NCBI GenBank assembly: GCA_964479955.1
Contig: CAYZNK010000002.1
Coordinates: forward strand, 71,489-135,488
Direction of reading: 5' to 3'
Source: an uncultured Candidatus Saccharibacteria bacterium
GTDB lineage: Bacteria > Patescibacteriota > Minisyncoccia > Minisyncoccales > Staskawiczbacteraceae
Length of the DNA: 64,000 bases
Positions 10,264 through 61,343 of the stretch are shown in pieces. The notes under the pieces are model-generated. The model was given only the letters and a program-made list of their open reading frames with translations, was not told the origin of the DNA and ran no database searches. Position 1 is the stretch's first letter; every line of letters begins with the position of its first letter. Both the position numbers and the translations under genes were made by a program.

Positions 10264-10363
10264 CGGTCGCTCTCTAATTGAATAAAATAACAATTTGTGG
10301 TATAATATATTATCGCTGTTTTGCGGTAAAACAGCACGGCTCATTTACAAAAAGGACTTAAAC

Positions 10364-10696
10364 ATGAGACGGTTTCGACGCAAAGTTTTCTATGTTTTTG
10401 TGTTTGGCAGAAATGCCGATATAAGGGGAAGAATTGCAAGAAGGTTTCAACACGGAGAAGTTCGCATTCCAGGAACTTCTAGTTTTGAAGTAAGAATATG
10501 TTTAATAAAAAGCTTAAGAGAATTAAAGAGAGAGGTTAGAACGGCTACCCACTTTTATATTCTGGTGGATGCAGCTATGCCGGAAGACGAAAAGAAGGGT
10601 TTACATGACGCTTTGTGTGATGTCTGCGAGAATGAAACTGTTTCATTAAAGGCGGTAAATTTAATCCGCCAAGAAAGCGCTTTGTACGCTTTCTAA
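10364..10696 (+). CDS. orphan hypothetical protein (GC-richer cassette)
   Basis: ATG at 10364 is preceded by aaagga. Promoter is TTGAAT-17-TATAAT (10279-10307) and the terminator is gctttagc-cccg-gctaaagc plus T-run. The track start at 10295 lies inside the promoter. Confidence 0.55.
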   Translation: MRRFRRKVFYVFVFGRNADIRGRIARRFQHGEVRIPGTSSFEVRICLIKSLRELKREVRTATHFYILVDAAMPEDEKKGLHDALCDVCENETVSLKAVNLIRQESALYAF

Positions 10697-10781
10697 TTTG
10701 TACCTGTTGTTTTTGTATTTTTGCTTTAGCCCCGGCTAAAGCTTTTTTGTTTTTTTAAAAAGCGTTATAATAAATAAAAGT

Positions 10782-11066
10782 ATGGATTATATAACTTTAA
10801 TTCTTTATTTTTTAGCAGGCGTTGTCCAGGATTTTTTCTTTACATTAAATTCAAAGTACATTGCAAAAGAAAAAGTTTTGATGGCTGTTTTGTTTTCTTT
10901 TTTGACTATTTTGATGAGCATGCTTGTTTTATATAATATCTTAAATGATTTAGATTCAAGCAGGAGCCTTTTATCAATTATTGTTTATTCTGTTGGAATA
11001 GCCTGCGGAACCTATATTGCAATGAAAATACCTTCTCCAAAAAACAAAAAACGAAACAATAAGTAA
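10782..11066 (+). CDS. small membrane protein
   Basis: 94 aa with 3 hydrophobic helices. Family not assigned. Confidence 0.55.
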   Translation: MDYITLILYFLAGVVQDFFFTLNSKYIAKEKVLMAVLFSFLTILMSMLVLYNILNDLDSSRSLLSIIVYSVGIACGTYIAMKIPSPKNKKRNNK

Positions 11067-11232
11067 ATTGTCTCAATTTAATTGTTTAATTTTACTGCTT
11101 TTAATGAGGCATTTTTTTAAATAGCGCGCTTTAGTATTGACATTTTAAATATTTCTTTTAGAATAAAAATCAACGGATTTTTTGGTTCAAACCAAAAAAG
11201 ACATTTGGCTCTTTGAAAACGGAGACGGGAAA

Positions 11233-11745
11233 ATGGAAGAAACAAAAAGCTTTACGGAAAAGAGTTCAAGAGGGAGTTTTAACACGGAAGCTGTTTTCTT
11301 AAATGCTAAGCGCCTTGGGAACTTATGCAAAATTATTGCAGAATATTTTGCTTCCAAGGCAAAAAAAGAGGGAAAAATAATAGATGCGGTTGTGGGGCAC
11401 CAAATAATGGCTAGTTTTGTTGCCTATTGGCTGGCAGAAAAAGACCCAAGCGGGCATGATGTTTTGATTATTCCTGCAACTAAAAAGGAGATTTTTCATG
11501 AGCAAAAAAGACTCAGTGGTGTGATAATTGAACCCAGATATCGCATACACATGAAAAACAGGACGTGTTTGGTTGTTTGGGATAAGGCTGAGGCAGAAGA
11601 AATAGTAGAGATTTGCGAATCCGTGTATTTGATGATGGGTGACGTATTGGGGGTTGGCGTTTTTCGCAATGAGAGAAAGGGCGAAATCACTGCCGAATTT
11701 CTTGGTGTGCCGAAACTTTTTTGCGCAATTAACGGCGAGAAATAG
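11233..11745 (+). CDS. hypothetical protein, remote phosphoribosyltransferase-like pattern
   Basis: ATG at 11233 follows ggagacggg. Promoter TTGACA-16-TAGAAT lies at 11137-11164. CLVVWDKAEAEE occupies the place of a PRPP loop. Function uncertain. Confidence 0.45.
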   Translation: MEETKSFTEKSSRGSFNTEAVFLNAKRLGNLCKIIAEYFASKAKKEGKIIDAVVGHQIMASFVAYWLAEKDPSGHDVLIIPATKKEIFHEQKRLSGVIIEPRYRIHMKNRTCLVVWDKAEAEEIVEICESVYLMMGDVLGVGVFRNERKGEITAEFLGVPKLFCAINGEK

Positions 11746-11890
11746 TTATGGCAAGGCTTTAAATGCTGTGGGGAATCCCTGCGGCATTTTCTTTTCAAAT
11801 TTTATAAATATTGCACACATCAAATTCCAAGCCTTGATTTTATTATTCAACAAGGTAAACTGATATAATGATAATTAAAAGAATAAAGAA

Positions 11891-13480: not shown

Positions 13481-13503
13481 TTTTTTAAAAAAAATTTAAA
13501 AAT

Positions 13504-14388: not shown

Positions 14389-14441
14389 TATAAAATTTTC
14401 AACTCAATAGAAATTAAAAATTGTAAATTAGAAATTTGTTT

Positions 14442-15377: not shown

Positions 15378-15378
15378 A

Positions 15379-16623: not shown

Positions 16624-16737
16624 AATAAAATCCCAAAGCCCAAAATCCAATGCCCACCCAATAATTAAGACGTTTTAGGATTTAGTCCGTCTAGGATTTA
16701 GTTGGGATTTGGAGTTTGGTATTTAGGATTTCAAAAT

Positions 16738-17400: not shown

Positions 17401-17458
17401 AAACAATAATATATTATAATTGAAATTATTAACATCAAAAATTTAAATAAAAAATTAT

Positions 17459-18508: not shown

Positions 18509-18510
18509 AA

Positions 18511-19776: not shown

Positions 19777-19800
19777 ATATTTGTTAAAATGTAAAAAAAG

Positions 19801-19835
19801 AGCGCCCAGGTGCCATTTGGCACGGGGCGCTTTTG
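19801..19835. terminator. bidirectional terminator shared by gap and the minus-strand cassette
   Basis: An A-run, then agcgccc-a-ggtgcc-attt-ggcac-g-gggcgct, then a T-run. Confidence 0.7.
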
Positions 19836-19846
19836 GGTAGCGGTTG

Positions 19847-20728
19847 CTACATAATAGAGAGTATTTCAATCTCCTCTCGGAGATTGTTGATTTCATCTGA
19901 GAGAAGGGAAATGACTCCCTCTGTCTCAGTGATTTGGGTTTTCAACGATATGCATTCCATTGCATATTGACGGCGGACTGTTATTGATTTGGCTTGTCGG
20001 TTCCAATAGTATCCGGGTGAAACCCAACTTGTATGAGCGTTGCGGGCCGCTTGGAGCATCTTGCTCCTGAGTTCAGCCAAGGTTGTTCTTTCTTCCTTCA
20101 GCTGGTTTTCCAGGCGTAAAAGAAGAACTCTTTTTTCAATCGAGTTTTCAGTAGGCTCGTCTACGGGTCCGATTGTTGACTGGTAGAACCCGCCAGACAA
20201 TGCCGTTGAGATTTCCTCAACCGCAACCTTAACCCGAGGATGGAAGTCCATGGGTTTTGACCGGACTTCCGAAAAGAAAACTCGCACAGGCTCGTTCATC
20301 TGGCGCAAGCACCAGAGAACGCGTTCTTTCATCTTTGAATTTCCTGTCGCAAAAGCGTCTGTGAGCTCTGATACAGCCGCCAAGTTTATAAGCTGTACGG
20401 CTGCTTCCTTGGCAACAGCTCCGTTTGAATCTCCAAGCGCCAAAATCAGCTCTTGGGTGCTTGGCGGAACGCGTATTGCCACTGGCGCAACAGGAACTGT
20501 TGATGCACTTGACGCCGCAGGCTCTTCTGCTGGAGGCCTTTCTGCTGTTGCATATGACTCTGGCACTGCTGGGGCCGTCACTGTTTCCGACGACTCCGAA
20601 GAAGACTCTGGTTTGGCTGGCTCCTTTTTACCCGAGCACGATTGCATGACTGCAAAAAGAATAACAATCAGCACGGCTATGCCTATCCAAGTCTTTTTAC
20701 TGAACAGGTCCACTTTCGGCAGTTTCAC
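19847..20728 (-). CDS. orphan lipoprotein-like protein with a HEAT-like repeat and C-terminal coiled coil (GC-richer cassette)
   Basis: 293-aa ORF in a visibly GC-richer block. GTG start is preceded by aaggagag. Has a signal/anchor ending in ...MQSCSG, a Pro/Ala/Ser/Glu-rich linker and an LILALGDSNGAVAKEAAVQL HEAT-like segment. Confidence 0.7.
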   Translation of the reverse strand: MKLPKVDLFSKKTWIGIAVLIVILFAVMQSCSGKKEPAKPESSSESSETVTAPAVPESYATAERPPAEEPAASSASTVPVAPVAIRVPPSTQELILALGDSNGAVAKEAAVQLINLAAVSELTDAFATGNSKMKERVLWCLRQMNEPVRVFFSEVRSKPMDFHPRVKVAVEEISTALSGGFYQSTIGPVDEPTENSIEKRVLLLRLENQLKEERTTLAELRSKMLQAARNAHTSWVSPGYYWNRQAKSITVRRQYAMECISLKTQITETEGVISLLSDEINNLREEIEILSIM

Positions 20729-20798
20729 TTTGACTCTCCTTATTGTGAATGTGCACAGGGGAAAACACCCCTAAATTTGACTTTTCATCTATATATTT

Positions 20799-20827
20799 AT
20801 CATATCATATTTTTAATTGTTTGTCAA
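20799..20827 (-). promoter_or_regulatory. sigma70-type promoter of the 19847..20728 cassette
   Basis: On the minus strand: TTGACA, 17-nt spacer, TATGAT. Confidence 0.6.
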
Positions 20828-29592: not shown

Positions 29593-30459
29593 TTATTTCG
29601 GCTTTTCTTCTTTTGATATCTGGAAAGCTTTTATAACCGGTTCTAAATCTCCGTCAACTATTTTTTCCAAATTATGCCAGCTTTTGTTTATTCTGTGGTC
29701 TGTAATTCTGTTTTGAGGATAGTTATATGTTCTTATTTTTTCTGACCGTTTCGCCCAGCCAATTTGTTCTCTTCTTTCTATGGTTAATTTTGATAAATCA
29801 GCTTCTTCTTGTTTCCTTAATAGCCTGGCAGAGAGTAAAGACAAAGCCGTTTCTTTATTCTGCATTTGGTTCCTTTCTGATTGACAGGTAACAACAAGGC
29901 CTGTTGGCTTATGGACAATTCTTACAGCTGACTCTGTTTTGTTTACATATTGTCCGCCGGGACCTGAAGCTTTGTAAGTTGAAATTTCCAGATCAGAAGG
30001 GGAGATATTCACTTCGGTTTTTTGGGGTTTTAACAAAACCGCAACAGTTGCGGTTGAGGTGTGAACCCTGCCTTGCTTTTCTGTTCTGGGGATTCTCTGA
30101 ACCCTATGGACACCGCCTTCATTTTGCAATTCATCATAAGTTCCATTACCTGATAATTCAAAAATAATTTCTTTATATCCGCCTATCGTTGACTGATTGG
30201 AATCCAAAATTCTTTCTTTCCACCCTTTTTTTTGTCCGTATTTAGAGTACATTCTATATAAGTCAGCTGCAAAAAGACCGGCTTCATCTCCTCCTGTGCC
30301 TGCACGTATTTCAATAATCGCTGACTGCTTTTCTCCGGATTCAAAATTAGCGGACATCAAGTCTCCGTTGTTTTTCATTTGTTCTCCGTAGTTTTTCCAA
30401 TCTTCTGCTGTAAACTTTGAAAAATCTGGTTGTTCCATTTTATTCATAAATATTATCAC
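29593..30459 (-). CDS. prfA: peptide chain release factor 1, N-terminally short
   Basis: GGQ motif and RIPRTEKQGRVHTS (PxT position). Only 288 aa, and the AGTGGDEAGLF motif sits at about residue 55. Confidence 0.8.
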   Translation of the reverse strand: MIIFMNKMEQPDFSKFTAEDWKNYGEQMKNNGDLMSANFESGEKQSAIIEIRAGTGGDEAGLFAADLYRMYSKYGQKKGWKERILDSNQSTIGGYKEIIFELSGNGTYDELQNEGGVHRVQRIPRTEKQGRVHTSTATVAVLLKPQKTEVNISPSDLEISTYKASGPGGQYVNKTESAVRIVHKPTGLVVTCQSERNQMQNKETALSLLSARLLRKQEEADLSKLTIERREQIGWAKRSEKIRTYNYPQNRITDHRINKSWHNLEKIVDGDLEPVIKAFQISKEEKPK

Positions 30460-30622
30460 AAAGAGTATATATTGGCAAACTCGTCAGGCAGTAGAATTTT
30501 GGCTTGCTTCGCAAATGGCCGGAGGTCAGCTAAAATTTTACTGCCCGGCTTGATTTTAGAAAGATTTTCTGTTATAAAAATATTGGTTTTGTTATTTAAA
30601 ATAACAAGAGAGGAGGGTATCA

Positions 30623-30835
30623 ATGCCATACTGCAATACCTGTAAAAAAGAAAATAATGACGCTTTGCTTTCAGACGGAAGAAGGTGCTTAAAGTGCCAA
30701 AGAGTGATGGATAACTCAACTGACAACTACTGCAGAATTTGTTCGGAAAAAGAATCTGTTTGCCAGCTTTGTGGCGCCTCTATTGACCCTACAAAGAAAG
30801 GATTTTTTAATGGGGCAGGTTTTAAGTTTCCCTAA
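30623..30835 (+). CDS. small zinc-ribbon protein (4 CxxC pairs)
   Basis: 70 aa with a strong gaggaggg motif 5 nt before the ATG. Candidate promoter TTGATT-17-TATAAA. Terminator gggcgg...cgccc. Confidence 0.6.
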   Translation: MPYCNTCKKENNDALLSDGRRCLKCQRVMDNSTDNYCRICSEKESVCQLCGASIDPTKKGFFNGAGFKFP

Positions 30836-30947
30836 CTAAGTATGGGCGGACGACTGTTCGCCCTTTATATTTAATCCCCGTAGGTTGCCTTTTTCAAAAA
30901 AGTTTGCTATTATAAAAACTATTAAATACTAATCTGTACAAATAGCT

Positions 30948-35713: not shown

Positions 35714-36094
35714 ACATATATAACAATTAAAAACATAAAGACAAAATCACTATATATTCTTCCCGTCATTGCGGGATCCCCCGCTAAGCGGGGGAAAAAC
35801 TAAACAGCGTTTTAAGAATATCCGTGAAGGCAGGTTTTAAAGGTCTGTCTTCACGGGTATTTTTTCTTCTTGGCTGAACGGAAAGCCTTTTGATAATTGA
35901 ATAATGGAAACCAGTTTTAAAAACTGGGAAAAAATTGAATTAGCGGAGTGTCCACAGTACTGAAAATTTCTACGAAAATTTTAGCGCTGAGAGAATTCAC
36001 TTCGTGTAATTCGTTTCTTAAAGTTGTTTCGAATCAAAGCTTGTCGAGTGCTTAACTCGACAGTAGTTTATTCTAACTAGAGTAATCAACTTTT

Positions 36095-37556: not shown

Positions 37557-37840
37557 TTAAAATTTTGTATAGAAACCTTTTGGTTTATATACAAAATGGA
37601 ATGTAGTCGGCTCAGAGTGATTCGATAAACTCAGTTCGATGAGTATATCGAATTGTTCTGAAGCATTTTAGCAGATTTGCTTGAAAATCGCATTCGAAAC
37701 AACTTTAAGAAACTAATTTTTCCACAGAAAAATTATCCTGAGATTTTCGAAGGGTAAGACATTACTCCGTCAAAAGCGGAGTTTTGTTTTGATTAAGGTT
37801 GTTCTTGAAAATTAGTTGGAAAAGAATTAAGCTATCTTAT

Positions 37841-41964: not shown

Positions 41965-41993
41965 TTGACAAAAAATAGCGCAACGAGTAAAGT
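41965..41993 (+). promoter_or_regulatory. sigma70-type promoter of cassette 42057..43073
   Basis: TTGACA, 17-nt spacer, TAAAGT. Confidence 0.55.
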
Positions 41994-42056
41994 AAAAATG
42001 TGTTCTTTACATATTGCCCTAAATAGCTGGGCGTAATCAAGTTTGGGAGTTTTGCC

Positions 42057-43073
42057 ATGAGTAATGTTGTTTCCACAAAGTCTGTAGAAGAAGCGAAACC
42101 CGTTCACCCGTTGGCTAATTTTATGCCAACATCTTTCCAGTCGTTTGACGATTGGCTTGCAAGGTGGAATAGTGCTACAGTTACGCAGGAAAGATTGGGA
42201 TTGCTTCATTGTATGCAAACTATTGAATATTGGCTTGAGAAAACCGAGCAATCCGTGTTTTTTCTTCTTGACGTAGCTAACGGATGGGAAACAGGAAACC
42301 CTTTTCGTTGTTATCATCGTCATTACAATGCTGATGACATCAATAAGAGTCGCGAAATCATTTCGCGCAAGGCATTTGATGTCTTATGCGTTAAATTGTT
42401 TGCTTCTGGCAAACAAGATTACCCGCCTTTATGGTGGTGGATGTTGGAAAAACAAGAGACTTTTGACAAACTTCTTAACTTTTGCGGCCCCGAAGCTAGG
42501 AATTATTATAAACCGTTTGCAGGAGGGCAGGTGAGCCACCAGGTGGAGGTGTATGGCAGTTTTCTGCAAGAGTTTAGCCGTTTGGGATGGACTTATTCGC
42601 GGCGCTCCAATAGACAAGGCGAGGTTGCAAACGAGGATGAAATTCGGGCGCGCCTTGTTGCTGCCCGACCTCAATTTATAGATATCCTTAGGTATTTGGG
42701 TCAACTTAATTGGCTTAATCGGCCGATGGGTTGTTATGGTGGTGACTTTCCAGAGCTTGATAAACCCTCTATTAGTAAATTGAGGGAAATCGTTTTTGAG
42801 ACAGAATTATTGCTCCCCCCACAGGATTTTCATTCGCCGGCAGAGCATAGCCGTAAGCCGAAGAATTTGCGCGAAGCTATTCTCGGAGCTTCTGTTGCTG
42901 CAGAAGTTCTTGTATTAAATGATATCCGTCTGGCAGAGCGCAATAGAATTAAGGCAGCTTGGAGAAAATCTAGGCGCAAACACGAAAATATGGAACGTAT
43001 AAGCCGCCTGGAAAAAATTGAAAAAGCAAAAAGGACTTTGGATGAGGAGGCCGCGCGGCTTACCGGCCAATAG
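42057..43073 (+). CDS. orphan hypothetical protein (GC-richer cassette)
   Basis: 338-aa ORF with tgggag 7 nt before the ATG. Trp-rich with a basic coiled-coil tail. Terminator cctccgc...gcggagg plus T7. No family recognised. Confidence 0.7.
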   Translation: MSNVVSTKSVEEAKPVHPLANFMPTSFQSFDDWLARWNSATVTQERLGLLHCMQTIEYWLEKTEQSVFFLLDVANGWETGNPFRCYHRHYNADDINKSREIISRKAFDVLCVKLFASGKQDYPPLWWWMLEKQETFDKLLNFCGPEARNYYKPFAGGQVSHQVEVYGSFLQEFSRLGWTYSRRSNRQGEVANEDEIRARLVAARPQFIDILRYLGQLNWLNRPMGCYGGDFPELDKPSISKLREIVFETELLLPPQDFHSPAEHSRKPKNLREAILGASVAAEVLVLNDIRLAERNRIKAAWRKSRRKHENMERISRLEKIEKAKRTLDEEAARLTGQ

Positions 43074-43120
43074 GGATTTTAGTTTGAGTCCCAATCCTCC
43101 GCTGATACATTAAGCGGAGG

Positions 43121-43187
43121 TTTTTTTATTGCAATTTTATAAAATAAAAGTTAAATTAAATAAATTGAAATATGAGCTTATCAATTC
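43121..43187 (+). repeat. duplicated copy of the ychF promoter and first 5 codons (decayed copy)
   Basis: About 65 nt with 4 mismatches to 43669-43733. It reads ATGAGCTTATCAATT and then diverges to a stop. Confidence 0.8.
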
Positions 43188-43370
43188 AGCTTTGTGATTA
43201 AAATCCTACCGCGGAGATATGAAAAAATTATAACAAGTCGAGACGAATAGGAAAGAATCGTTCATTTAATATTGGTTTGATAGGGTGATGCTTGGTTGAC
43301 ATTAGCGATTTCAAGTGATAAAGTTTTAATTGGCTCTTCTTAACTCTAAACAAGAAAGGAAAGGTGAGTC

Positions 43371-43610
43371 ATGGCAAATAAAATGCCAACAGTTTATCAA
43401 CTTATACCGCCACTCGCGGTAAGAATGACCCAAGAAGTTCACATCGGAATGGGCCCTGAAGGATTTTCCCTCAAAAAGCACGAACGAGGAATTGCTTCTG
43501 GTACTCTCGGATTTTGCACAATCGAAGGGAGACCCAGATTGGGATTCCAGGTCACTTTCGCGGGTTTGGACTTTGTTCTTCCACAAGAGTTCATAGAGCT
43601 CGTTCCGTAA
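43371..43610 (+). CDS. orphan small protein (GC-richer cassette)
   Basis: 79 aa with aggaaaggtgag just before the ATG. Promoter TTGACA-17-TAAAGT at 43296-43324. Terminator ggggtggctgaacagtcaccc plus T-run. Confidence 0.6.
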   Translation: MANKMPTVYQLIPPLAVRMTQEVHIGMGPEGFSLKKHERGIASGTLGFCTIEGRPRLGFQVTFAGLDFVLPQEFIELVP

Positions 43611-43668
43611 TAAAGTGAATCTCAATCCTTCCATGGTTTGTGCCTATGGGGTGGCTGAACAGTCACCC

Positions 43669-43733
43669 TTTTTTATTGCAATTTTGTGAAATAAAAGTTA
43701 AATTAAATGAATTGAAATATGAGTTTATCAATT
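43669..43733 (+). repeat. native copy of the duplicated ychF 5' region
   Basis: See 43121-43187. Confidence 0.8.
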
Positions 43734-45235: not shown

Positions 45236-45370
45236 AACCCTATCACCAATTTCAGCCAAGTTAAAAGGTAAGATATACTTTGAAGGCGAAGTGCCTTCGG
45301 CTGTTAATTTTGTAATATAAAGTCAGCGGTGAAATTGGTGAGGGGTTATTGCGACGGTAAGGTATAAATC
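45236..45370. repeat. hairpin-core element, copy A
   Basis: About 80% identical by eye to 57591-57732. Terminal inverted repeat is aaccctatcaccaatttc / gaaattggtgaggggtt, and the inner hairpin is gaagg-cgaagtg-ccttc. Confidence 0.75.
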
Positions 45371-45499
45371 CTTCGACTTCGCTCAGGCCTTCGGCTCTGA
45401 TAGTCTCGGACTCGAAGAGATATTTTCTGCGGAAAATAAAAGCCCTGCAAACCGTAGAAGAGCAGTGAGCAGGGCATAAAGAAGGATGAATCCGACGGA

Positions 45500-45823
45500 T
45501 TATTCAACGTATCCGCAAGAGTTTTCAATGGAGTAGTAAAGAGTGATTTCTGCACCCTCCTTGATCTTTTCGTGACAGAATTCTCCTTTGCAAGATAATC
45601 CTTTTATCCTGCAGACCAATTTGAAAAGCTGGAATTTGGTTTCGTCAAAGACGATAGACATCACCTCTGCTGAAATGGCAGTTGACTTCTCCTGATAAGA
45701 CAGGAAGAAAACAGGAAGATTTCCGGGACGCCTTTTAATGAGGGCTTCCCATAAGGGTAGGTTGGTTGGACCGTCTTTGACCAAGATTTTTTCCGTTTCT
45801 ATTTCCAATGCGGCGTTACTCAT
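45500..45823 (-). CDS. orphan hypothetical protein (GC-richer cassette)
   Basis: 107 aa with agggaga 5 nt before the ATG. Terminator gccctgc...gcagggc plus T-run at 45440-45478 (minus strand). Confidence 0.65.
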   Translation of the reverse strand: MSNAALEIETEKILVKDGPTNLPLWEALIKRRPGNLPVFFLSYQEKSTAISAEVMSIVFDETKFQLFKLVCRIKGLSCKGEFCHEKIKEGAEITLYYSIENSCGYVE

Positions 45824-45871
45824 TGCAATCTCCCTAAAGAGCGTGTTTTGTAAATTTACTCCCTATTATTT

Positions 45872-45900
45872 ATTATATCATAATAAAATACCTATGTCAA
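45872..45900 (-). promoter_or_regulatory. consensus sigma70-type promoter of cassette 45500..45823
   Basis: On the minus strand: TTGACA, 17-nt spacer, TATAAT. Confidence 0.65.
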
Positions 45901-47688: not shown

Positions 47689-47921
47689 AACATAGATATT
47701 TGACTGCCTCATTATTTTGAGGCTTATAAAAGATAAACGCTCTCCTTAAAGATTTTGGAGAGTGAAACAAAAAGACGCGTACGTACCGCGCCTTTTTGTT
47801 TATATCCATACTACATTTTATTGTGCGATAGCTGTCAAATTCATTTAGAATTTTGAAAACAAAAAGAGAGCTGGTCAGTGCTCTTATTGTTTAACGACCG
47901 GCAACTTACTGTCGCCTTGAT

Positions 47922-48068
47922 TTAATCAGGAAGTAAAGCGCCGCACCTGTTGCAGGAATGCAACACTCGGCCGTACTTATATCGATGGGGGATTGGCGTG
48001 TGGTATCCGCCATTGGGACAGCCACAAAGCCATACAACACGAATGTACTCCCAAATCTTTTTTAGCAT
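47922..48068 (-). CDS. orphan 48-aa zinc-ribbon-like peptide (GC-richer cassette)
   Basis: Own translation: MLKKIWEYIRVVWLCGCPNGGYHTPIPHRYKYGRVLHSCNRCGALLPD*. aaaggaaaa lies upstream. Minus-strand terminator is agagc-actgacca-gctct plus T-run. Below the ORF-track size cutoff. Confidence 0.4.
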   Translation of the reverse strand: MLKKIWEYIRVVWLCGCPNGGYHTPIPHRYKYGRVLHSCNRCGALLPD

Positions 48069-48345
48069 GGCAGTTTTTCCTTTCTTGTTATAGAAAATTT
48101 GACTCGCCGATATGTGGTTGGTAGATTAACTACTATTAAGTTAATAATATCATATATAAAATACTTTGTCAATAGTAAATTTAAGATTGAGAAAGATTAA
48201 AAATTTAAAATTCCGACTGAACACAGCGGGGGCGGTTTGGCTATTGAGTCTTCACCATTTGTAACGGAGAACTTGCGATAGGTGTTTAAACAAACCTTGT
48301 AAATAGCAATACCATAGATTTTTTTCATTGGGAAATGGTGAAGAC

Positions 48346-48374: not shown

Positions 48375-49020
48375 ATAATTACATGATGAAAAAACAAACC
48401 AATAAATTTAACAAAACAAGCGGATGATTGTCTGACTTTTTGTGTTAGTAGATGACCGCTTGAATAAGCGGTTTTAAATTTATTGAAAATCAGTTTGCCG
48501 GCGATTGAAAATATAAATTGTTTTCAGCCGCGGGTTAATTGATTGAAGCGGAAGCAAAGATTGCTTTTTGAAAATTTAACCCTGTTAAATGTTTTAAATA
48601 ACAAATTGCCTACCAGCAATTTTTAACAGGTTCTTCCCAATTAATTTTAGACATGGGGTCTTTTTAATTGGGGAAAGTAGGTAAGTCCTGTTAAAATTTT
48701 AACAGGATAAAGCATAAAATTAAGTTCACATTTGCGTTGATGATTCAGCGCAAAAAAGTAAACTTACGCAAAAAGATAAGCTTAACAATTAAGTTTATCG
48801 AAGGATAGGTTATAAGCGAATGGCGGATGCCTTGGGATATTGATGCGATGAAGGACGTGGCGTGCCTGCGATAAGCATCGGGGAGGTGGCTAGCAACCTT
48901 TGATCCGGTGATTTCCGAATGGGAAAACCTTATTGTGTTAATCCACAATAACCCCGCCTTGGCGGGGAGCGTACCCGGTGAAGTGAAACATCTCAGTAGC
49001 CGGAGGAAAAGAGAACAAAA

Positions 49021-49289
49021 GTCCTACAACTTACAAATTTTATCAATTTAGCGAAGCGAATTTTGAGACAAATTCGCGACGCGAGGAGCAGTGCGTGCCA
49101 AGTGGCACGAGAGCGACGAAGCAACAAAGAATTTGGCCAAAATTCGTTCGCCCGAAGGGAAACGAAAAAAATGGCTGATTTCTTTGTTGCAACTTCGTTA
49201 ACGTAGTTAACACTATGTTTCCTCGTTGCGCCTCGAAATCATCACATTTTTTCGTTTCTAAATATGACGAAATTTGTAAGTTGTAGGAC
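49021..49289 (+). other. 23S insertion sequence 1 (IVS-like), closed by a 20-bp perfect helix
   Basis: gtcctacaacttacaaattt (49021-40) pairs with aaatttgtaagttgtaggac (49270-89). It lies between GAGGAAAAGA and AGTAGTGGCGAGCGAA. Confidence 0.75.
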
Positions 49290-49346
49290 AAGTTATATCC
49301 TTAGTAGTGGCGAGCGAAAAGGATACAGCCTAAACTAATTTTTTTA

Positions 49347-49505
49347 CACCGCTACTTTTTGATAATTTTCGTAACGAAATAAAATAATTTTGCGCGAGAA
49401 TTTGGAAATGCAAGGAGGTTTGCCAAGTGGCAAGCCGACGAGCAGTTACAAATTTGTAGCCGAAATTATTAATTGCAGTAGAAAAGTTATCAGAAAGTAG
49501 CGGTG
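49347..49505 (+). other. 23S insertion sequence 2 (IVS-like), closed by a 19-bp helix
   Basis: caccgctactttttgataa pairs with ttatcagaaagtagcggtg (one G-U pair). It shares a gccaagtggca...cgacga.gca block with insertion 1. Confidence 0.7.
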
Positions 49506-49861
49506 AAATTAGGGTTGTAAGGTTGTAGCGTCAGGAGCGTTATTTATTCTTCGTATAGTCGAAGAACGAATAATGCTTGCTGAGAGAGAAAATTTAGATA
49601 AAGGTTTTAATAGAAGCACTCTGGAAAGAGGCGCCATAGAAGGTAATAGCCCTGTATATAAAAAAACTATTTATGCTCTTTGCTATGATACTTGAGTACT
49701 GTCGGGCATGATAACCTGGCAGGAATCTACCGGAACTATCCGGTAAGGCTAAATAATCAATATCACCGATAGTGAACCAGTACCGTGAGGGAAAGGTGAA
49801 AAGCAGGGGGTTGACCCCGATGAAATAGTACCTGAAACCATTTGCTTACAAAGAGTCGGAG

Positions 49862-49943
49862 GTCTTCACCTTTTGGGTGTTGAGTTTAATTGTGGAACAA
49901 AACAATTTCCACAAAAATAATTTGACCTTCAAAAGGTGAAGAC
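49862..49943 (+). other. 23S insertion sequence 3 in the helix-25 region
   Basis: gtcttcacctttt pairs with aaaaggtgaagac, a 13-bp perfect stem. Confidence 0.7.
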
Positions 49944-50586
49944 TGACGGCGTGCTTTTTGTAGAACGAGCCAACGAGTTTGAATAATCAATAGTCTAAGC
50001 CCTTACGGGGCGGAGGCACAGCGAAAGCGAGTGTTAAAAGCGCGAAAAATTATATTGGTTGTTCAAGACCCGAAGCCAGACGAGCTTACCGCGAGCAGGA
50101 TGAACCCGGGCGAAAGCCAGGGGGAGGTCCGAACCAGTGAGTCGTGCAATTCTCTTGGATGACTTGTGGTAAGGAGTGAAAAGCTAATCGAGTTTGGTAA
50201 TAGCTGGTTCTTCCCGAAACAGCTTTGGGGCTGGCGTGTACAAACTATTTTCCGGGGGTAGAGCACTGAATAGAATTCCGTGGAGTTTCTCCAGGTCTTC
50301 TAATCAAACTCCGAATACCGGAAAAACTATGTATGCAGTAAGAACGCGGGGGCTAAGCTCCGCGCTCAAAACGGAAACAGCCGAGATCATCGTCTAAGGT
50401 CCCTAAATTAGGCTAAGTGCTAAGAAGGAGGTATTTTACCCTTGACAGGCAGAAAGTTAGCTTAGAGGTAGCTATCTTTTAAAGAGTGTGTAACAACCCA
50501 CTGCCCAAACTTTCCCGCTTGCGGGAGAGAGGGGTGAGATGCGCCAAAGATTTCCGGGGCTAAAGTCTAATACCGAAGACATGGAT

Positions 50587-50712
50587 TCATTCGCATCACA
50601 CTGCGTGTGATGTTAAATGACCAAAAACCAAAAACCAAAAATATTTAATATTTTGGGATTTGAGAATTGGAATTTGGGAATTTAAGCATCGTGCGAAGCG
50701 CGATGCGAGTGA
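50587..50712 (+). other. 23S insertion sequence 4 in the helix-45 region
   Basis: tcattcgcatc pairs with gatgcgagtga. It contains a CA-repeat / UG-repeat hairpin (50621-50683). Confidence 0.65.
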
Positions 50713-51003
50713 GTGGTAGGGAAGCATTCTGAGGGCATTGAAGCAGGAGGGTAACCGACTGTGGAGCGCTCAGAAGAGAGAATGTTGGCCTGAGTAACCG
50801 CATTGCGCGTGAAAGCCGCGCACACCGAAAGTCCAAGGTTTCCTTGGCAATGGTATTCAACCAAGGGTTAGGCGGTCCTAAGGCAAACCTGAAAGGGGTA
50901 GCTGACGGACAGTTGGTTAATATTCCAACCCTTTTTTATCCGTTCAATAAAGTGCGGAATTTAGTAGGTAAAGCGATTTATTGGATTATCGTTGTTAGTC
51001 AGA

Positions 51004-51030
51004 CCTGTCTGCCGTCAGGCAGGCGCAAGA
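51004..51030 (+). repeat. CCTGYCTG...CAGGCAGG palindromic element, copy inside 23S
   Basis: cctgtctg-ccgt-caggcagg-cgcaaga. Confidence 0.6.
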
Positions 51031-51420
51031 ATGGCTAACGGAAGGTCTCTTTATGGGGCTGACTTTACTGAGCAAGTTTCCAAGAAAAGCTTTATTTAAA
51101 TAGGATAAAGAAACCGTACCGTAAACCGACACAGGTGGACAAGCGTAAGTATGCTAAGGTGAACGGGTGAAACCTCGTTAAGGAACTCGGCAAATCAGTG
51201 GCCGTAAGTTCGCAATATGGCCTGCCCGACACGCAAGTGTTTAGGGCTGCAACAAACGTACTTCAACCGACTGTTTATCAAAAACACAGCTCTCTGCTAA
51301 CTCGTAAGAGGATGTATAGGGGGTGAGGCCTGACCAGTGTTGGAATGTTAAGTTTGGGGGTCCAAGCCGCAAGGTTTGGGCTCACTGAATGAAGCACCAA
51401 TGAACGTCGGCGATAACTAT

Positions 51421-52151
51421 AGACTGACGATTGTAGTTATAAAATTTGGCTATATGCTGGAAACTCCGGGTATGTTGAACTACTATCCGTTACTATGATA
51501 AAATATATAGTAATGGAAGTAAAAATGTTTAAACGCGGACAATCAGCAGGAAAGACTTTTGACGAGAAACTCGCTAACTACTTGAGCGGTTTTACTGATG
51601 GCGAAGGAAGCTTCAATATTTCAGTAATTAATCGTGAGAAAGACTATAAACACGGCTGGAAAATCAGCTTGTGTTTCAATATTTCTCAAAAAGATGACAC
51701 AATACCAAGATTATTTAAGGATTTTCTTGATTGCGGTAAAATAAGATACCGCAAAGATGGAATTTGTTATTTTGATGTTAGAAAAACAAAAGATTTAACA
51801 AATATTGTTGTGCCATTCTTTAAAAAATTTCCAGTGCGTTCAAAGAAAAATGAAACTTTTCAGATTTTTTGTGAGGCGTTGGAGATTGTTAAATGTAAAA
51901 AACATTTAACAAAATCCGGAATGAAAAAAATTCTGGATTTGAGAAATAAAATTGTAGTTGGCAGAAAAAGAAAGTATACAAATTCAGAGATACTTTCTAC
52001 TTATAATCAAAAGAATCCTCAGAGACTATACGCCAAACCCCGCTTAGCGGGGAAGATATAGTCCGACCTGCATAGCGATATGCAGAATATAATAGAAATA
52101 TTATATCAAGATACTAAAACTGACTTAATTTAGTATTAGTAACATAAAAAG
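51421..52151 (+). mobile_element. group I intron in the helix-69 loop (after the U equivalent to E. coli U1917)
   Basis: The exon ends ...gataactaT and resumes aatcgtccaaaggtagcg. Intron guide gtagttat (51433-40) pairs with the 8 exon nt ataactat via G-U at the splice site. The intron ends in G and has the core motif aagatatagtccgacc. Confidence 0.8.
51495..52061 (+). CDS. LAGLIDADG homing endonuclease (intron-encoded)
   Basis: YLSGFTDGEGSFNISV motif. The ORF lies inside intron 1 and ends within the core motif. Confidence 0.8.
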   Translation: MIKYIVMEVKMFKRGQSAGKTFDEKLANYLSGFTDGEGSFNISVINREKDYKHGWKISLCFNISQKDDTIPRLFKDFLDCGKIRYRKDGICYFDVRKTKDLTNIVVPFFKKFPVRSKKNETFQIFCEALEIVKCKKHLTKSGMKKILDLRNKIVVGRKRKYTNSEILSTYNQKNPQRLYAKPRLAGKI

Positions 52152-52815
52152 AATCGTCCAAAGGTAGCGTAATCCCTTGCCGGGTAAGTTCCGGCCCGCA
52201 TGAATGGCTTAACGAGTTGAAGACTGTCTCAACGAGGTGCCCGGTGAAAATGCAATAGCAGTGAAGATGCTGCTTACCTGCGGCTAGACGGGAAGACCCC
52301 GGAAGCTTTACTGTAGTTTGATATTGGGTTATGGTTTTTAATGCGTAGCGTAGTGGGGAGGATATGAAACGGCATTTTCGGATGTCGCGGATCCGCCAAT
52401 GAAACACCCATCTTTGGGAATTATAATTCTAATCCACGCCTCAACGGCGGGTGACAGTGTTAAACGGGCAGTTTAAGTGGGGCACTTGCCTCCTAAAAAG
52501 TAATGGAGGCGTTTAAAGGTCAGCTAGCTTCGGATGGAAATCGAAGCGATAGTGTAAAGGCAAAAGCTGGCTTTACTGCAAGACGGCTATGTCACGCAGT
52601 TGCGAAAGCAGAACTTAGTGAACCGACTTGTTTTTATAGAAAACAAGAAGATCATCAGCCAAAAGCTACTCCGGGGATAACAGGCTGGTAGAGCCCGAGC
52701 GTCCATAGCGACGGCTCTGTTCGGCACCTCGATGTCGGCTCAACTTATCCTGGGGCTGGAGCAGGTCCCAAGGGTCCGGCTGTTCGCCGGTTAAAAAGTT
52801 ACGCGAGCTGGGTTC

Positions 52816-52846
<31 letters not shown>

Positions 52847-52884
52847 ACCGCAGGCGTTGAGTTTTGAGGAGATTTGTTCCTAGT

Positions 52885-53667
52885 AAAATTTTGCTACTTC
52901 GTAAAGTAATTTACGATGACAATTCGGCTAATAACGGTGAAACCTTAAAAGTTATGGTTCGTTGATAATCATTATTGAATTCGGTCCAATAATAATGGTA
53001 CAATTAACTTGAGGACCAATAATAATTTAAGGCAATACCGTGGGAAGTCAATCTAAAATAAATTTATCATATATAGCAGGTTTTCTGGACGGAGATGGCA
53101 GTCTTATGTTTCAAATAAAGAAGCGCAAAGATTGCAAATTAAAAAGTAGATTTATGGCAACTGTTTGTTTTTACCAAGACGGTCGCCACGAAAAACCACT
53201 TTTTTGGATCAAAAGAATTCTCGGTATCGGTTTTATTTCCCGTCGTAAAGATGGAATGACCGAACTGAGAATAAATGGCTTTAAACAAGTAAAAGAAATT
53301 TTGCAAAAGTTAATGCCGTTCATTAGATTTAAAAGAGAACAGGCAAAAGCCCTTTATGGAGCTGTTAGTCTTTTAAATCAAAAAGAAACAAGGTTATTAG
53401 ACAAAAAAGATTTACTAAAATTAGTGAATTTTATAATAACCATCCAAAAAAATAATTACATCGCCAGAAAAAAGAAAACCAAAGCAGATATTTTTAAAAT
53501 TTTAGGTCTGACCCCGTAACGACTGATCCTGAGTCCTGAGTTTATTGAAGGACGAAGGAGAGATAGAAGTGAGATATCTTCTATAACATGCCGACTCCCC
53601 AATTCGCCAGTTGGCGAAAGGGAGAAGATATAGTCTATGCACGTGGTGACACGTGGTTTAAAACATG
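52885..53667 (+). mobile_element. group I intron inside the sarcin-ricin loop (after the U equivalent to E. coli U2656)
   Basis: The exon reads ...ttcctagT | intron | ACGAGAGGACCGG. Guide gcta (52893-96) pairs with exon tagt via G-U. The intron ends in G and has the core motif agaagatatagtc. Confidence 0.7.
53040..53519 (+). CDS. LAGLIDADG homing endonuclease (intron-encoded)
   Basis: YIAGFLDGDGSLMFQI motif. 159 aa with a GTG start, inside intron 2. Confidence 0.8.
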   Translation: MGSQSKINLSYIAGFLDGDGSLMFQIKKRKDCKLKSRFMATVCFYQDGRHEKPLFWIKRILGIGFISRRKDGMTELRINGFKQVKEILQKLMPFIRFKREQAKALYGAVSLLNQKETRLLDKKDLLKLVNFIITIQKNNYIARKKKTKADIFKILGLTP

Positions 53668-53985: not shown

Positions 53986-54098
53986 CCGGTGGCGACTATG
54001 CTGGAGTTGTCCCACCTGATCCCATTCCGAACTCAGAAGTGAAATACTCTAAGGCCGATGGTAGCGCTTATGCGCGAGAGTAGGTAGTTGCCACCAGA
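53986..54098 (+). rRNA. rrf: 5S rRNA
   Basis: ccggtggcgactatgc...cccattccgaactcagaagtgaaa...gtaggtagttgccaccag. Confidence 0.85.
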
Positions 54099-54113
54099 GA
54101 ACTCAATAAAAAA

Positions 54114-54143: not shown

Positions 54144-54204
54144 GTTGCATATTAAAAGATGTTGATGTAAAATAACTTTGATTACCTTAAATTGTTTTTA
54201 TCAA

Positions 54205-57495: not shown

Positions 57496-57503
57496 ATTTA
57501 TTG

Positions 57504-57533
57504 CCTGCCTGCCGGTAGGCAGGTACGACAAAA
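57504..57533 (+). repeat. CCTGCCTG...AGGCAGG palindromic element, intergenic copy
   Basis: cctgcct-gccggt-aggcagg-tacgacaaaa. Confidence 0.65.
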
Positions 57534-57590
57534 TAGTCATTGCGGTTTCTGACACCGCAATGACTATTTTTATTTGCAGCAGATAAAATA

Positions 57591-57732
57591 AACCCCATCA
57601 CCAATTTCATTCAAATAAAAGGTAAGACATAGTTTTGAAAGGCGAAGCGCTTTCGGCTGTCAGTGTTGCGATACAAAGTCAGTGGTAAAATTGGTGAGGG
57701 GTTTTGCGGCGGTAAATGTAATTATCCGCCGC
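57591..57732. repeat. hairpin-core element, copy B
   Basis: Terminal inverted repeat aaccccatcaccaatttc / aaaattggtgaggggtt and inner hairpin gaaag-gcgaagcg-ctttc. Homologous to 45236-45370. Confidence 0.75.
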
Positions 57733-58449
57733 AAAAAAAAGAGCGCCGTGCTATGCTCTTCCCAGTGCCGCCTTATGGAATTGGGCGGGGATTTTTTAAG
57801 GGTGAGCGATAAACACGGCGCAAAATGCAGCAAAGCCTCATTTTCGAGAGCTCGTAGGGATAGGGTTTTCCACCATAACAGGTACCGTCCCCGTAGCCCA
57901 ACATCACTGCATTTGAATGATAGACTGACAGGAGGCCCGCTTGTGCACAACAACGGGCTTTTGTGTTTGCGTTCTTGCCGCAGGCAAACTCTTTACGGGC
58001 GGTACAATATTTCCGCCGGTTGAAGCTGTGCCACACTAAGTTGGCCAAATATCAAACCGTGTGGATGGGATGCCCCATTTGCTCTGCTCAACTGCGTCTA
58101 GGAGCATAATGGGATATTCTGGGCTGATCCTTCACTTCCGCTAGATCCCGCGAACTTAGTTGAGCTGAGTTGCGATACGCAAGGTAAGTGAAGGACTGCA
58201 TCAGCGCAGTAGAATTTTTCCAATTTCACGGTAGTCGCTATAGGATGCGAAATCCTGCCAACTCCCTGTCAGTCTTGTATGAAAAGTGCATGCGAGTTTC
58301 TTGCTTGGTCCTTTACAGGATGGGGAGAAACTCTATTTTTTGTTTTGCAACACTAGTCTGTACCCCAAAACTAGCGAAGATTCCAGCTGTCTTTTTTTCG
58401 AGGCATCTCCCGCCGGAATTTACGGAAATGCACGCTATTTTGAAAAGAT
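57733..58449 (-). ncRNA. candidate ~700-nt non-coding transcript, or a decayed cassette; class unknown
   Basis: GC-richer block with a minus-strand promoter at 58456-58484 and a weak stem plus U8 at 57733-57759. It has only overlapping 90-113 aa ORFs on both strands with non-protein-like sequences. Several long-range helices are present (for example tccttcactt / aagtgaagga). Confidence 0.4.
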
Positions 58450-58455
58450 GTTTTT

Positions 58456-58484
58456 ATCTTAGCATATAGCAATTCTCCTGTCAA
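58456..58484 (-). promoter_or_regulatory. sigma70-type promoter driving the 58449->57733 unit
   Basis: On the minus strand: TTGACA, 17-nt spacer, TAAGAT. A second TTGACA lies 20 nt upstream. Confidence 0.55.
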
Positions 58485-58600
58485 GGGTTGTGCTAGTTTG
58501 TCAAGTTTGTTATTATTAATAAAATAAAATATTTAAAAAAATAAAAATATAATTATTTAGCAGAAAGTTGATTTTTAAAGTTGAATTTCTGCTACCCGAT

Positions 58601-60058: not shown

Positions 60059-60123
60059 AACTAAATCGCGAATTAAACGCCTCATACTGGTCCGCCGACT
60101 GGCGGATGAGGCGTTTGTGTTGC

Positions 60124-60378
60124 TTAAAATAGTAAAAAAAAGCCCCTTTTGCAAACTCGGGGCATAAAAGAGGCAACTTGATGTATTCCGCAAAAATTTT
60201 CTTTTCCGGCAGTTTCAATAATTTTTTGCCAGAAAAGAGATATGAGGAATATTGCGAGCGCGTTAAAGAACAAAATCTTGGGCACCCATAACAGAGAGAC
60301 AGGAGCATGATGCTCCAAAGCTATCCCTGCTACTACATAACTGATTGAAACTGCGCAGGTGATGAGATTTTTTTTCAT
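60124..60378 (-). CDS. small two-TM protein, paralog 1
   Basis: 84 aa with gggggaag before the ATG and promoter TTGACA-17-TATTAT. Loop motif ALEHHAPV. Caveat: the 3' end overlaps a terminator-like hairpin. Confidence 0.45.
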   Translation of the reverse strand: MKKNLITCAVSISYVVAGIALEHHAPVSLLWVPKILFFNALAIFLISLFWQKIIETAGKENFCGIHQVASFMPRVCKRGFFLLF

Positions 60379-60436
60379 TTTTCTTCCCCCGTTGAGTGTT
60401 CTGTATATTTTATAATATTATGTGTTAAGTTTTTTG

Positions 60437-60622
60437 TCAAGGGTTTGGCTGGATTTTTTTTATTGTTAGAATTGTAATCCAGAGACCAAAGAATATTGAG
60501 GTTAAAATAATGGCCTCATCCCACCAGCAGTCCGGAGTTTTGAGAGGCGATAAAGAAAGGATGAATAAAAAGTATATGATCAGAACTGAAATCATTAGGG
60601 TTGTTTTGAGGAAAACGGACAT
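60437..60622 (-). CDS. small two-TM protein, paralog 2
   Basis: 61 aa with tggaga before the ATG and the same TM-loop-TM layout. Confidence 0.45.
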   Translation of the reverse strand: MSVFLKTTLMISVLIIYFLFILSLSPLKTPDCWWDEAIILTSIFFGLWITILTIKKIQPNP

Positions 60623-60801
60623 GATTATGTCTCCAGGTAAAGATATAAATTAAATTGTCCAACGAGCTGTTTTTATTTTATTATTTATAAAGTATTTGTG
60701 TCAAGCATATGCAAAAAAAGACCCCGTAAAATCGCTTGCGCTATTGCGGGGTATATAATAAGGCCGATAGGCCACCTTTTGTTGGGACATTTTTGCCATA
60801 T

Positions 60802-61113
60802 CTAATTTATCTGGAGTAGGCGGTCGTATTTCTCGCAATAACTATTTGGCAAACCGCAGCAAGAGAGGTAGCGAAGTTTCTTTTGGCTAATCGGAAACAC
60901 TTCGCCACATTTATTGCACCGGAAGGTTTCTCCAATTTTCACGATTTTGGCAAACAAAAACTTGACTACCGGTATGCCGCCAAACAGGACAGTTATAACC
61001 AAACATGCGTCAATAATCGGCACCGGAGTATGTATTTCCAGCGCAAGAGTCAGGAGAACAAACCATCCAACGAGCATCAATGTCACCAGGGTAATCTTCA
61101 GGATTTCAAGCAT
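60802..61113 (-). CDS. small two-TM protein with a C-terminal Cys cluster, paralog 3
   Basis: 103 aa with aaggaaaag before the ATG. Loop motif ALEIHTPV, then CNKC...CC...C. Terminator accccg...cggggt plus T7. Confidence 0.55.
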   Translation of the reverse strand: MLEILKITLVTLMLVGWFVLLTLALEIHTPVPIIDACLVITVLFGGIPVVKFLFAKIVKIGETFRCNKCGEVFPISQKKLRYLSCCGLPNSYCEKYDRLLQIN

Positions 61114-61343
61114 CGTCTTTTCCTTTTAAAATAGGGGATTGTATGTTAAAGTTCAATATATTTTTATATCATATCTTTTATTTATTAGTCAAGATGTTGT
61201 AGGGTTTGTTTAACTTTGATATTATAAATAAATAATGTAATTTTATAAGATAAATAGAAGTTGCCCCTCGCCCCTCGTCGCTTTGCTCCTCGGGGTTTGC
61301 TGACCTGCGGGCTCGGGACGATTTCTTACTTCGTAGAAATCGC

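Follow-up and report, generated by a model that had tools for sequence, protein, structure and literature searches.

The stretch of DNA analysed here (the window, 64,000 nucleotides (nt)) covers positions 71,489 to 135,488 of contig CAYZNK010000002.1 (GenBank assembly GCA_964479955.1), from an uncultured bacterium of the Staskawiczbacteria type (Parcubacteria, candidate phyla radiation (CPR)). Its G+C content (GC) is 36.6% and nearly all of its genes lie on the plus strand, with housekeeping genes for a release factor, FtsE/X, FtsZ, enolase, GAPDH, LysRS, SerRS and others. Scattered through this backbone are nine units with 11 small genes, here called cassettes, that are richer in GC and are preceded by Shine-Dalgarno (SD)-like motifs, in a genome whose visible 16S rRNA has no anti-SD sequence. 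They had been singled out by a sequence-only reading of the window, and the open reading frames (ORFs), motifs, promoters and terminators that it listed were all found where it had placed them.

The units share one anatomy. A near-consensus predicted sigma-70 promoter is followed by a leader of 35-75 nt, whose AAGGAG-type motif lies 5-9 nt ahead of the start codon, then by a small ORF and an intrinsic terminator. They are self-contained single genes between housekeeping operons, often on the opposite strand, and the ORFs are often Cys-rich or predicted to span the membrane. Three relatives serve for comparison of individual units: L001, a strain ~95% identical to the window (Logan run); L010, an ENA assembly whose backbone proteins are 81-98% identical to those of the window; and the syntenic relative L003, which together with L002, L004 and L011 represents one further genome in which the 16S tail was read.

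Cassette 1 (10278-10750, plus strand) has the promoter TTGAAT-17-TATAAT (10278-10306), a leader with AAAAAGGA, an ORF of 110 amino acids (aa; 10364-10696) and a terminator at 10723-10742. Its ortholog at the same site in L010 has 71% aa identity, a ratio of nonsynonymous to synonymous substitution rates (dN/dS) of 0.22 and a retained AGGAA. Cassette 2 (11137-11800, plus) has the promoter TTGACA-16-TAGAAT, CGGAGA 8 nt before the ATG, a 170-aa ORF (11233-11745) and a terminator at 11761-11789. Three homologs of its protein were found at 53-71% identity, and the unit is syntenic in L010, with a dN/dS of 0.25 and an unchanged promoter and GGAG. Cassette 3 (19790-20827, minus) is transcribed from TTGACA-17-TATGAT (20827-20799) and has AAGGAG 7 nt before a GTG start, a 293-aa ORF (20728-19847) and a hairpin terminator at about 19833-19792. 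The protein combines an N-terminal hydrophobic anchor, a P/A/S/E-rich linker and a C-terminal coiled coil. It too is syntenic in L010 (78-80% aa identity, dN/dS 0.24, GC 0.50), where AGGAG survives although an indel has reshuffled the bases around it. Cassette 4 (30550-30870, plus) has TTGATT-17-TATAAA, GAGGAGGG 6-7 nt before the ATG, a 70-aa ORF (30623-30835) with four CxxC pairs that resembles a double zinc ribbon, and a terminator at 30844-30863. It diverges from a minus-strand release-factor paralog (29593-30447). This paralog has PCRF and RF-1 domains without the N-terminal part of PCRF and follows an AT-rich leader; the full-length release factor is encoded at 1612-2613. A frameshifted prfB was suspected beneath the 30623 unit and ruled out, the neighbouring gene being the shorter paralog.

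Cassette 5 (41965-43125, plus) has the promoter TTGACA-17-TAAAGT, a 57-nt leader with the invariant motif GCCCTAAATAGCTGGGCGTAA at 42016-42036, GGGAG 7 nt before the ATG, a 338-aa ORF (42057-43073) and a terminator at about 43097-43125. Cassette 6 (43187-43668, plus) follows with TTGACA-17-TAAAGT (43296), AAAGGAAAGGTGAG, a 79-aa ORF (43371-43610) and a terminator at 43648-43669. It lies between two direct repeats of 65 nt each (43122-43186 and 43669-43733, 94% identity), which are copies of the ychF promoter and first 15 coding bases (five codons), and it is identical in L001 and missing at the syntenic site of L003. Cassette 7 (45433-45900, minus) has a perfect TTGACA-17-TATAAT promoter, AGGGAG twice in its leader (the second copy 6 nt before the ATG), a 107-aa ORF (45823-45500) and a hairpin terminator. 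Its ortholog in L001 is 91% identical (dN/dS 0.31), and a search of 1.8 billion representative proteins gave just two relatives of its protein. In L003 this slot, from a 100-aa gene to a pseudouridine synthase gene, holds a non-homologous minus-strand gene that is also led by GGAG. Cassette 8 (47860-48172, minus), identical in L001, has TTGACA-17-TATTAT, AAAGGAAAA, a putative Cys-rich 48-aa ORF (48068-47922) and a terminator at 47884-47867.

Cassettes 9-11 (60075-61192, minus) form a tandem array in which each gene has its own promoter and purine motif. The ORF at 61113-60802 (103 aa) has a TTGACT promoter at about 61192 and AAAAGGAAAAG, the ORF at 60622-60437 (61 aa) a promoter at 60704 and TGGAGA, and the ORF at 60378-60124 (84 aa) a promoter at 60440, GGGGGAAG and a terminator at about 60114-60075. 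The three products are distantly similar, apparently paralogous small proteins with two predicted transmembrane segments each. No homolog of them was found in 80 loci with the neighbouring LysRS gene, where the position of the array is often taken by other small minus-strand SD-led genes.

The genes had originally been picked by these very traits, so the association was examined again with every ORF in the window and with independent loci, and it holds. In the window, the 11 genes were compared with 50 backbone genes. They exceed the backbone in GC (0.426 vs 0.344, p=1e-6) and in GC at third codon positions (GC3; 0.431 vs 0.303, p=5e-7), which bears out the claimed difference in composition. 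Their predicted pairing with a canonical anti-SD is far stronger (-7.6 vs -0.4 kcal/mol, p=6e-7). GGA occurs within -20 to -4 in 11/11 cassette genes and in 5/50 backbone genes (p=1e-8), with the cassette motifs 5-9 nt before the start. A GGAG-type motif had been claimed for all of them, and five (10364, 43371, 47922, 60124 and 60802) have only an AGGA/GGAA-type version; GGAG or GAGG itself precedes six of the 11 genes and one of the 50 backbone genes. That single backbone case proved to be a wrongly chosen internal start of the release-factor paralog, whose true leader is AT-rich.

Exact TTGACA promoters with a 16-18-nt spacer and a good -10 hexamer number 14 in the window, eight of them on cassettes; of the other six, three serve the rRNA genes (a pair at the 16S and one at the 23S), two belong to unannotated GC-rich units and one is intragenic. 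The cassettes do therefore have near-consensus promoters of their own. A hairpin followed by a T-run ends most units, as proposed, and none was found for 60437-60622. The proposal that most cassettes are antisense amounts to six of 11 genes (four of nine loci); the enrichment over the backbone, where one of 50 protein genes lies on the minus strand, is strong. Selection on mRNA structure was considered as a source of the high GC and rejected (fold z-scores -1.8 vs -1.1, not significant). The GC3 of class genes regresses on host GC3 with a slope of 0.34 +/- 0.24.

None of the cassette proteins matches a Pfam family at threshold, which agrees with the description of their products as unplaceable, except that several do have homologs in relatives. 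PHROGs gave no significant match, PADLOC no defence match beyond one weak coiled-coil one (E=0.003), and Rfam no family for any leader or GC-rich unit. The units differ from integron cassettes in that each has its own promoter, and no integrase was found among the 32 backbone ORFs scanned against Pfam. They share no 3' repeat except for a ~130-nt element at two sites. Copies of this element lie at 45240-45370 and 57590-57720, just 3' of two different minus-strand units, and at 4330-4484 of L001; they are 81-85% identical and have 14-nt terminal inverted repeats (CCCCTCACCAATTT / AAATTGGTGA(T)GGGG). The element looks like a miniature inverted-repeat transposable element. Seven of the 11 genes occur at the same junctions in the independent assemblies L001 and L010, so these seven are not chimeric joins.

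Pairing between SD and anti-SD is the textbook mode of start-site selection in bacteria, and loss of the anti-SD is assumed to void SD motifs. The 16S rRNA of the window ends in GAUCAUUUUUUUA, without CCUCC. In an alignment to the Rfam model, its 3' tail (37546-37559, plus strand; AGAUCAUUUUUUUA) stands opposite GGAUcACCUCCUUu, with a run of U's replacing the anti-SD base for base. The tail of L003/L011 is the same, confirming the earlier observation in a second genome; tails are known from these two genomes. The anti-SD motif is found in only 48% of Parcubacteria, according to a survey (PMC9297842). In the backbone leaders, A is enriched at -5/-6 and -11/-12 and A-runs abut the ATG. This pattern resembles the SD-independent initiation with upstream adenines that is described for Bacteroidia (PMC13000457).

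The same two kinds of genes recur beyond the window. In 13 relatives' loci, SD-like motifs precede 22 of 42 GC3-high genes and 15 of 174 others (p=1e-9). A larger set of 80 metagenome loci (652 kb) was anchored on LysRS and picked without reference to any cassette. Here, the SD core occurs upstream of 2.0% of the genes of at least 200 aa (n=349). Among the ORFs whose GC3 excess is 0.10 or more, 22% have the core and 66% lie on the minus strand (odds ratio 4.9, p=3e-8). In 24 of the 50 GGAG occurrences the motif ends 6-8 nt ahead of the start codon, and the consensus is aAAGGAGa. The class proteins of these loci are rich in Cys (2.8% vs 1.0%) and in paired CxxC motifs (9/59 vs 5/667), and show no enrichment of hydrophobic segments. 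Composition and signals thus set the cassettes apart in the window, the 13 loci and the 80 loci alike, as had been suggested for the window. We conclude from these predicted signals that the lineage carries a second class of genes that is accessory, mostly small, GC-richer, autonomously transcribed and equipped with a canonical SD. The class sits in genomes with an SD-free backbone and, where visible, a 16S rRNA without the anti-SD.

The largest cassette protein belongs to a conserved family. Ten homologs of this 338-aa protein were found in the protein collection, and GTDB genomes yielded nine loci; all are of the Staskawiczbacteria type, and the family is present in every Staskawiczbacteria-type locus recovered. 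Homologs bearing the name Candidatus Staskawiczbacteria, along with the synteny of the relatives' loci, place the organism in the Parcubacteria. In L002-L004 and L011 the gene occupies the same place as in the window, directly upstream of ychF. Every member exceeds its locus in GC (0.41-0.52 vs 0.32-0.43), with GC3 of up to 0.59. Nearly all have a TTGACA promoter and all have the leader motif GCCCTAARTARCTGGGCRTA. Of 13 leaders, 10 have GGAG or GAGG at a distance of 4-10 nt from the start, where shuffling of each leader predicts 0.78, a count that overstates the number of independent events because family members are not phylogenetically independent. The rest of the leader around GGAG varies in sequence and length. 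Searches of viral contigs and of phage and plasmid records gave no relatives of the family; for the protein at 19847, viral contigs were the sole collection searched and likewise gave none. The AlphaFold2 model of the 338-aa protein is confident (predicted local distance difference test (pLDDT) 81) and all-alpha, with a 58-residue C-terminal helix. A fold search with this model gave no match in the PDB at E<0.1.

The 21-nt leader element (GCCCTAARTARCTGGGCRTAA) lies ~25 nt upstream of the start and can form a 4-bp stem with a conserved 9-nt loop. It was observed at 42016-42036 of the window and in L003, L005, L007, L008 and L012-L019. It is conserved more strongly than the protein, whose identity falls to 32%. 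Its positions do not covary and it has no match in Rfam; a conserved factor probably binds there.

The cassettes differ in age. The genes at 10364, 11233 and 19847 lie at the same sites in L010, where their products are 70-80% identical and dN/dS is 0.22-0.25. Their synonymous divergence (dS) of 0.5-0.83 matches that of neighbouring housekeeping genes (0.33-0.86). The three genes are therefore protein-coding and descended vertically with the backbone. All three pairs have kept their GC (0.44, 0.41 and 0.50) and their motifs (AGGAA, CGGAGA and AGGAG). At least five of the 11 genes are, by the pattern of substitution (dN/dS 0.22-0.31) or membership in the conserved 338-aa family, real protein genes under purifying selection. 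Four are old as judged from these alignments, namely the three syntenic genes with backbone-like dS and the 338-aa family gene, and such old members maintain their GC excess and SD-like motif with no sign of decay.

Other units come and go between strains. L001 has a 560-nt cassette on the minus strand between ychF and the next gene that is absent from the window. It comprises TTGACA-17-TATAAT, a leader with AAGGATAAGGAGG and AAGGAG, the latter 7 nt before the ATG, an ORF of 93 aa and a terminator. The 93-aa family has 36 members, and AAGGAGG recurs in genomes of 36% and 55% GC. Together with the insertion at 43371, this cassette agrees with the suggested recent acquisition, which does not extend to the genes at 10364, 11233, 19847 and 42057, all old and syntenic. 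The class is therefore of mixed age, with some members inherited vertically over long times and others subject to gain, loss or replacement from strain to strain. The proposed origin from a phage, a plasmid or a partner cell is unsupported, since no homolog of the class was found outside the lineage. All come from Staskawiczbacteria-type or other CPR-like contigs, and the viral, phage, plasmid, PHROGs and PADLOC searches were empty of donors.

The identity of 100% between the window and L001 at 42057 and 43371 was considered as a sign of a cassette-specific sweep. This was rejected, as the divergence from L001 is a mosaic that includes identical backbone blocks too. Between 39738 and 49794, zero-difference blocks of up to 2 kb alternate with blocks that are 10-20% divergent (e.g., ychF), a pattern that indicates frequent homologous recombination among related strains.

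The leaders of the 93-aa family (L001 4835-4957; L100, L101 and L102 5884-6006; L103 3685-3807) contain a covarying hairpin (CCUGCU-CGUAUGA-ACAGG), an upstream AAGGAGG that could pair with a CCUC segment, and the real SD, in that order. The layout looks like a riboswitch or attenuator, with no match in Rfam. In L100 (55% GC), TATAAT-like hexamers stand ~7-12 nt before housekeeping starts (e.g., 5802, 7391, 2685 and 3233), which suggests that these mRNAs are leaderless. Its small hypothetical genes have GGAGG motifs and may represent a different version of the two-class pattern.

Some GC-rich units of the window lack a convincing gene. A ~700-nt unit on the minus strand (57740-58484; GC 0.46) has the promoter TTGACA-17-TAAGAT (58484), a hairpin terminator near 57745, a fold z-score of -3.1 and, at 57935, CCUCCU directly after a hairpin. 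With no convincing ORF, no Pfam or Rfam match and no homolog in the 80 related loci, it is a candidate large non-coding RNA. Two small plus-strand units upstream of tRNA-Ile (6945-7137 and 7214-7372) are also GC-rich and bounded by promoter and terminator, with fold z-scores of -5.0 and -5.8. The former is a long closed hairpin, contains CCCUCC and is absent from L010; the latter is 85% conserved there. Both are likely small RNAs, and neither matches Rfam.

We propose that the cassettes are flexible, lineage-specific accessory genes of a bacterium that has lost the anti-SD. Their SD-like motif may still work in initiation on the ribosomes of the cell itself, with something else in place of pairing with CCUCC, and we regard this tentatively as quite possible, if short of probable. 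The reader could be a weak, register-preserving G.U/A-U pairing of the motif with the U-tract plus the retained GAUCA, or an RNA or protein that recognises GGAG. Backbone genes would start without an SD and rely, like those of Bacteroidia, on A-rich sequence upstream. The earlier alternative to recent acquisition, a separately translated gene class, is compatible with these results. It seems distinctly unlikely that the canonical SD is read by a component other than the CCUCC tail of the 16S rRNA (a trans-acting RNA, a protein or a minor ribosome population) that provides a dedicated channel for accessory genes.

Several results weigh against a motif that functions in this way. Class leaders pair with the real U-tail at -3.5 kcal/mol, compared with -2.75 for shuffled leaders (p=0.017). 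With energies this weak and a backbone that has no purine signal at SD spacing, U-tract pairing as the reader finds little support. The A-runs of the backbone stand at a spacing of 0-4 and not 6-8, so a general mechanism in which the U-tail reads purines is not seen. In the 338-aa family, where conservation is strongest, the motif (GGGAG/AGGAG) is just a 5-nt purine run, and no reader of GGAG was found in the lineage DNA searched. Comparative coding evidence covers five of the 11 window genes and not the other six, and the class Cys content of 2.8% is near random, so that some of the small ORFs are possibly not real proteins. The SD-blindness of the other relatives is inferred from their SD-poor backbones, and the 16S count covers the 64-kb window, while the contig measures at least 267 kb and may hold a further rRNA gene. 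Finally, the turnover between strains fits, for part of the class, the account considered next.

The signals could instead be imported. The cassettes would then circulate horizontally in a Parcubacteria pool, their motif, GC, promoters and terminators having been shaped in SD-using donors, and the motif being tolerated as a relic in this host, where initiation needs no SD. Consistent with this, a whole cassette is present or absent at strain level (L001), the 43371 insertion with its 65-nt flanking duplication is absent in L003, the same slots are filled by non-homologous cassettes in relatives, and the family of the additional L001 cassette spans genomes of 36% and 55% GC. The consensus and spacing of the motif are exactly canonical, and the anti-SD is kept in 48% of Parcubacteria (PMC9297842). 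Against it, the old members keep motif and GC excess despite synonymous divergence at the level of the backbone. The 338-aa family was found in Staskawiczbacteria-type genomes only, one of which has it in synteny and is likewise devoid of the anti-SD, and searches of 5.8 billion proteins and of viral contigs, phages and plasmids gave no homolog on the donor side. We consider importation unlikely, and recent acquisition explains part of the class at most.

Other accounts give the motif a different reader or none. GGA(G) may be bound by a post-transcriptional regulator, CsrA-like or other, or belong to a structured regulatory leader. GGA is indeed present in 11/11 leaders, several with two copies (AGGGAG at 45500; the L001 cassette), and long leaders are conserved, as in the 21-nt motif of the 338-aa family and in the covarying hairpin and GGAGG/CCUC pairing of the additional L001 family. 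But a spacing peak at 6-8 nt and an AAGGAG consensus characterise an SD read by ribosomes, and leaders that sequester an SD are pointless unless the SD is needed. The 335 kb of lineage DNA searched contained no CsrA homolog, and nothing convincing for bS21 or S1 either, and a regulator site is in our view quite improbable. A hidden anti-SD, provided by another 16S gene, a trans-acting CCUCC RNA or the ribosomes of a partner cell, would supply a second ribosome population specific to this class and would explain why canonical geometry is conserved although the visible 16S cannot pair with it. The unannotated, structured GC-rich RNAs with promoter and terminator, one of which has a hairpin followed by CCUCCU at 57935 (minus strand), are possible carriers. 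This is nevertheless very improbable: CPR genomes normally carry one rRNA operon, and ~1 Mb of lineage DNA searched contained no second 16S 3' end or GAUCACCUCC. Neither RNA is a conserved component, the CCUCCU-bearing one having no homolog in 80 LysRS-flanking loci and the 6945-7137 RNA, which also has CCUCC, being absent from L010. That the cassettes are assembly chimeras, or GC-rich non-coding DNA in which ORFs and purine motifs arose by chance, is barely credible. Six of the 11 ORFs fall outside the comparative evidence, the Cys content of the class ORFs is random-like, and the window does have non-coding GC-rich units that share these promoters and terminators. Yet an artefact is largely refuted for seven of the 11 genes by identical junctions in independent assemblies, and it does not fit with dN/dS values of 0.22-0.31, conserved protein families or a motif position far from chance.

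Further features of the window concern its RNA genes and repeats. The rRNA genes are unlinked (16S 36093-37559; 23S 48803-52881; 5S at 53988), with protein genes in the 11-kb gap between 16S and 23S. The 23S gene measures 4,079 nt against a model of 2,925 nt and contains a weak match to a group I intron (51910-52085) and an internal 188-aa ORF (51495-52061); a LAGLIDADG ORF (53040-53519) lies between 23S and 5S. A second copy of the 3'-terminal 41 nt of tRNA-Ile (7537-7577) follows 86 nt downstream at 7623-7663, with 95% identity, and a tRNA-like stretch just upstream of the gene (7451-7492) is 79% identical to the 5' half of the tRNA. These repeats may be scars of past integration or duplication. 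Two tandem 59-nt repeats (3278-3418, 88% identical), with a hairpin in each, separate the ftsE-like and ftsX-like genes.

One lineage thus combines loss of the anti-SD, housekeeping genes free of SDs and a minority of genes with correctly spaced, apparently selected SDs and a stable GC offset. If the motifs are functional, they would imply a new way of reading the SD and two-channel translation in very small cells. If they are relics, they would mark an accessory pool and make gene flow between SD-using and SD-blind CPR lineages measurable. In either case, accessory genes of such genomes can be recognised by a simple signature in the sequence.

The cassettes resemble genomic islets and phage morons, which are likewise stand-alone intergenic units of deviant GC, often antisense and in part strain-variable. 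They differ in that they have no prophage context, integrase, PHROG match or donor homolog, and their neighbours are housekeeping genes. Several are also old and syntenic and have kept their deviant composition, which recent imports should lose. The array at 60124-61113, and only this unit, recalls type I toxin-antitoxin and small membrane protein loci in its tandem, individually promoted genes for very small two-helix proteins in an intergenic slot. This is no more than a resemblance, and the array has no family match.

The closest precedent for the ribosomal side is the survey of Tsurumaki et al. (2022, RNA 28:1041; PMC9297842). It likewise concerns Parcubacteria hosts with a 16S rRNA without CCUCC, and the backbone of the present genome accordingly has no SD sites. 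There, loss of the rRNA motif stands alone and SD helices are thought not to form, whereas here a minority of genes conserves the SD. The passages of that survey that were searched make no mention of such a minority with a conserved canonical SD, and our literature searches returned nothing else of this kind. The SD-blind ribosomes of Bacteroidia offer a functional parallel (PMC7797042, PMC9976891, PMC13000453 and PMC13000457). Their genomes are nearly SD-free and use upstream adenines, and a few genes with strong SDs (rpsU) form a class that is handled separately. In Bacteroidia, however, the anti-SD is present and sequestered by bS21/bS18/bS6, whereas here the anti-SD itself is gone; and where their SD gene rpsU feeds back on this sequestration, the SD-led genes described here are many unrelated, lineage-specific accessory genes.

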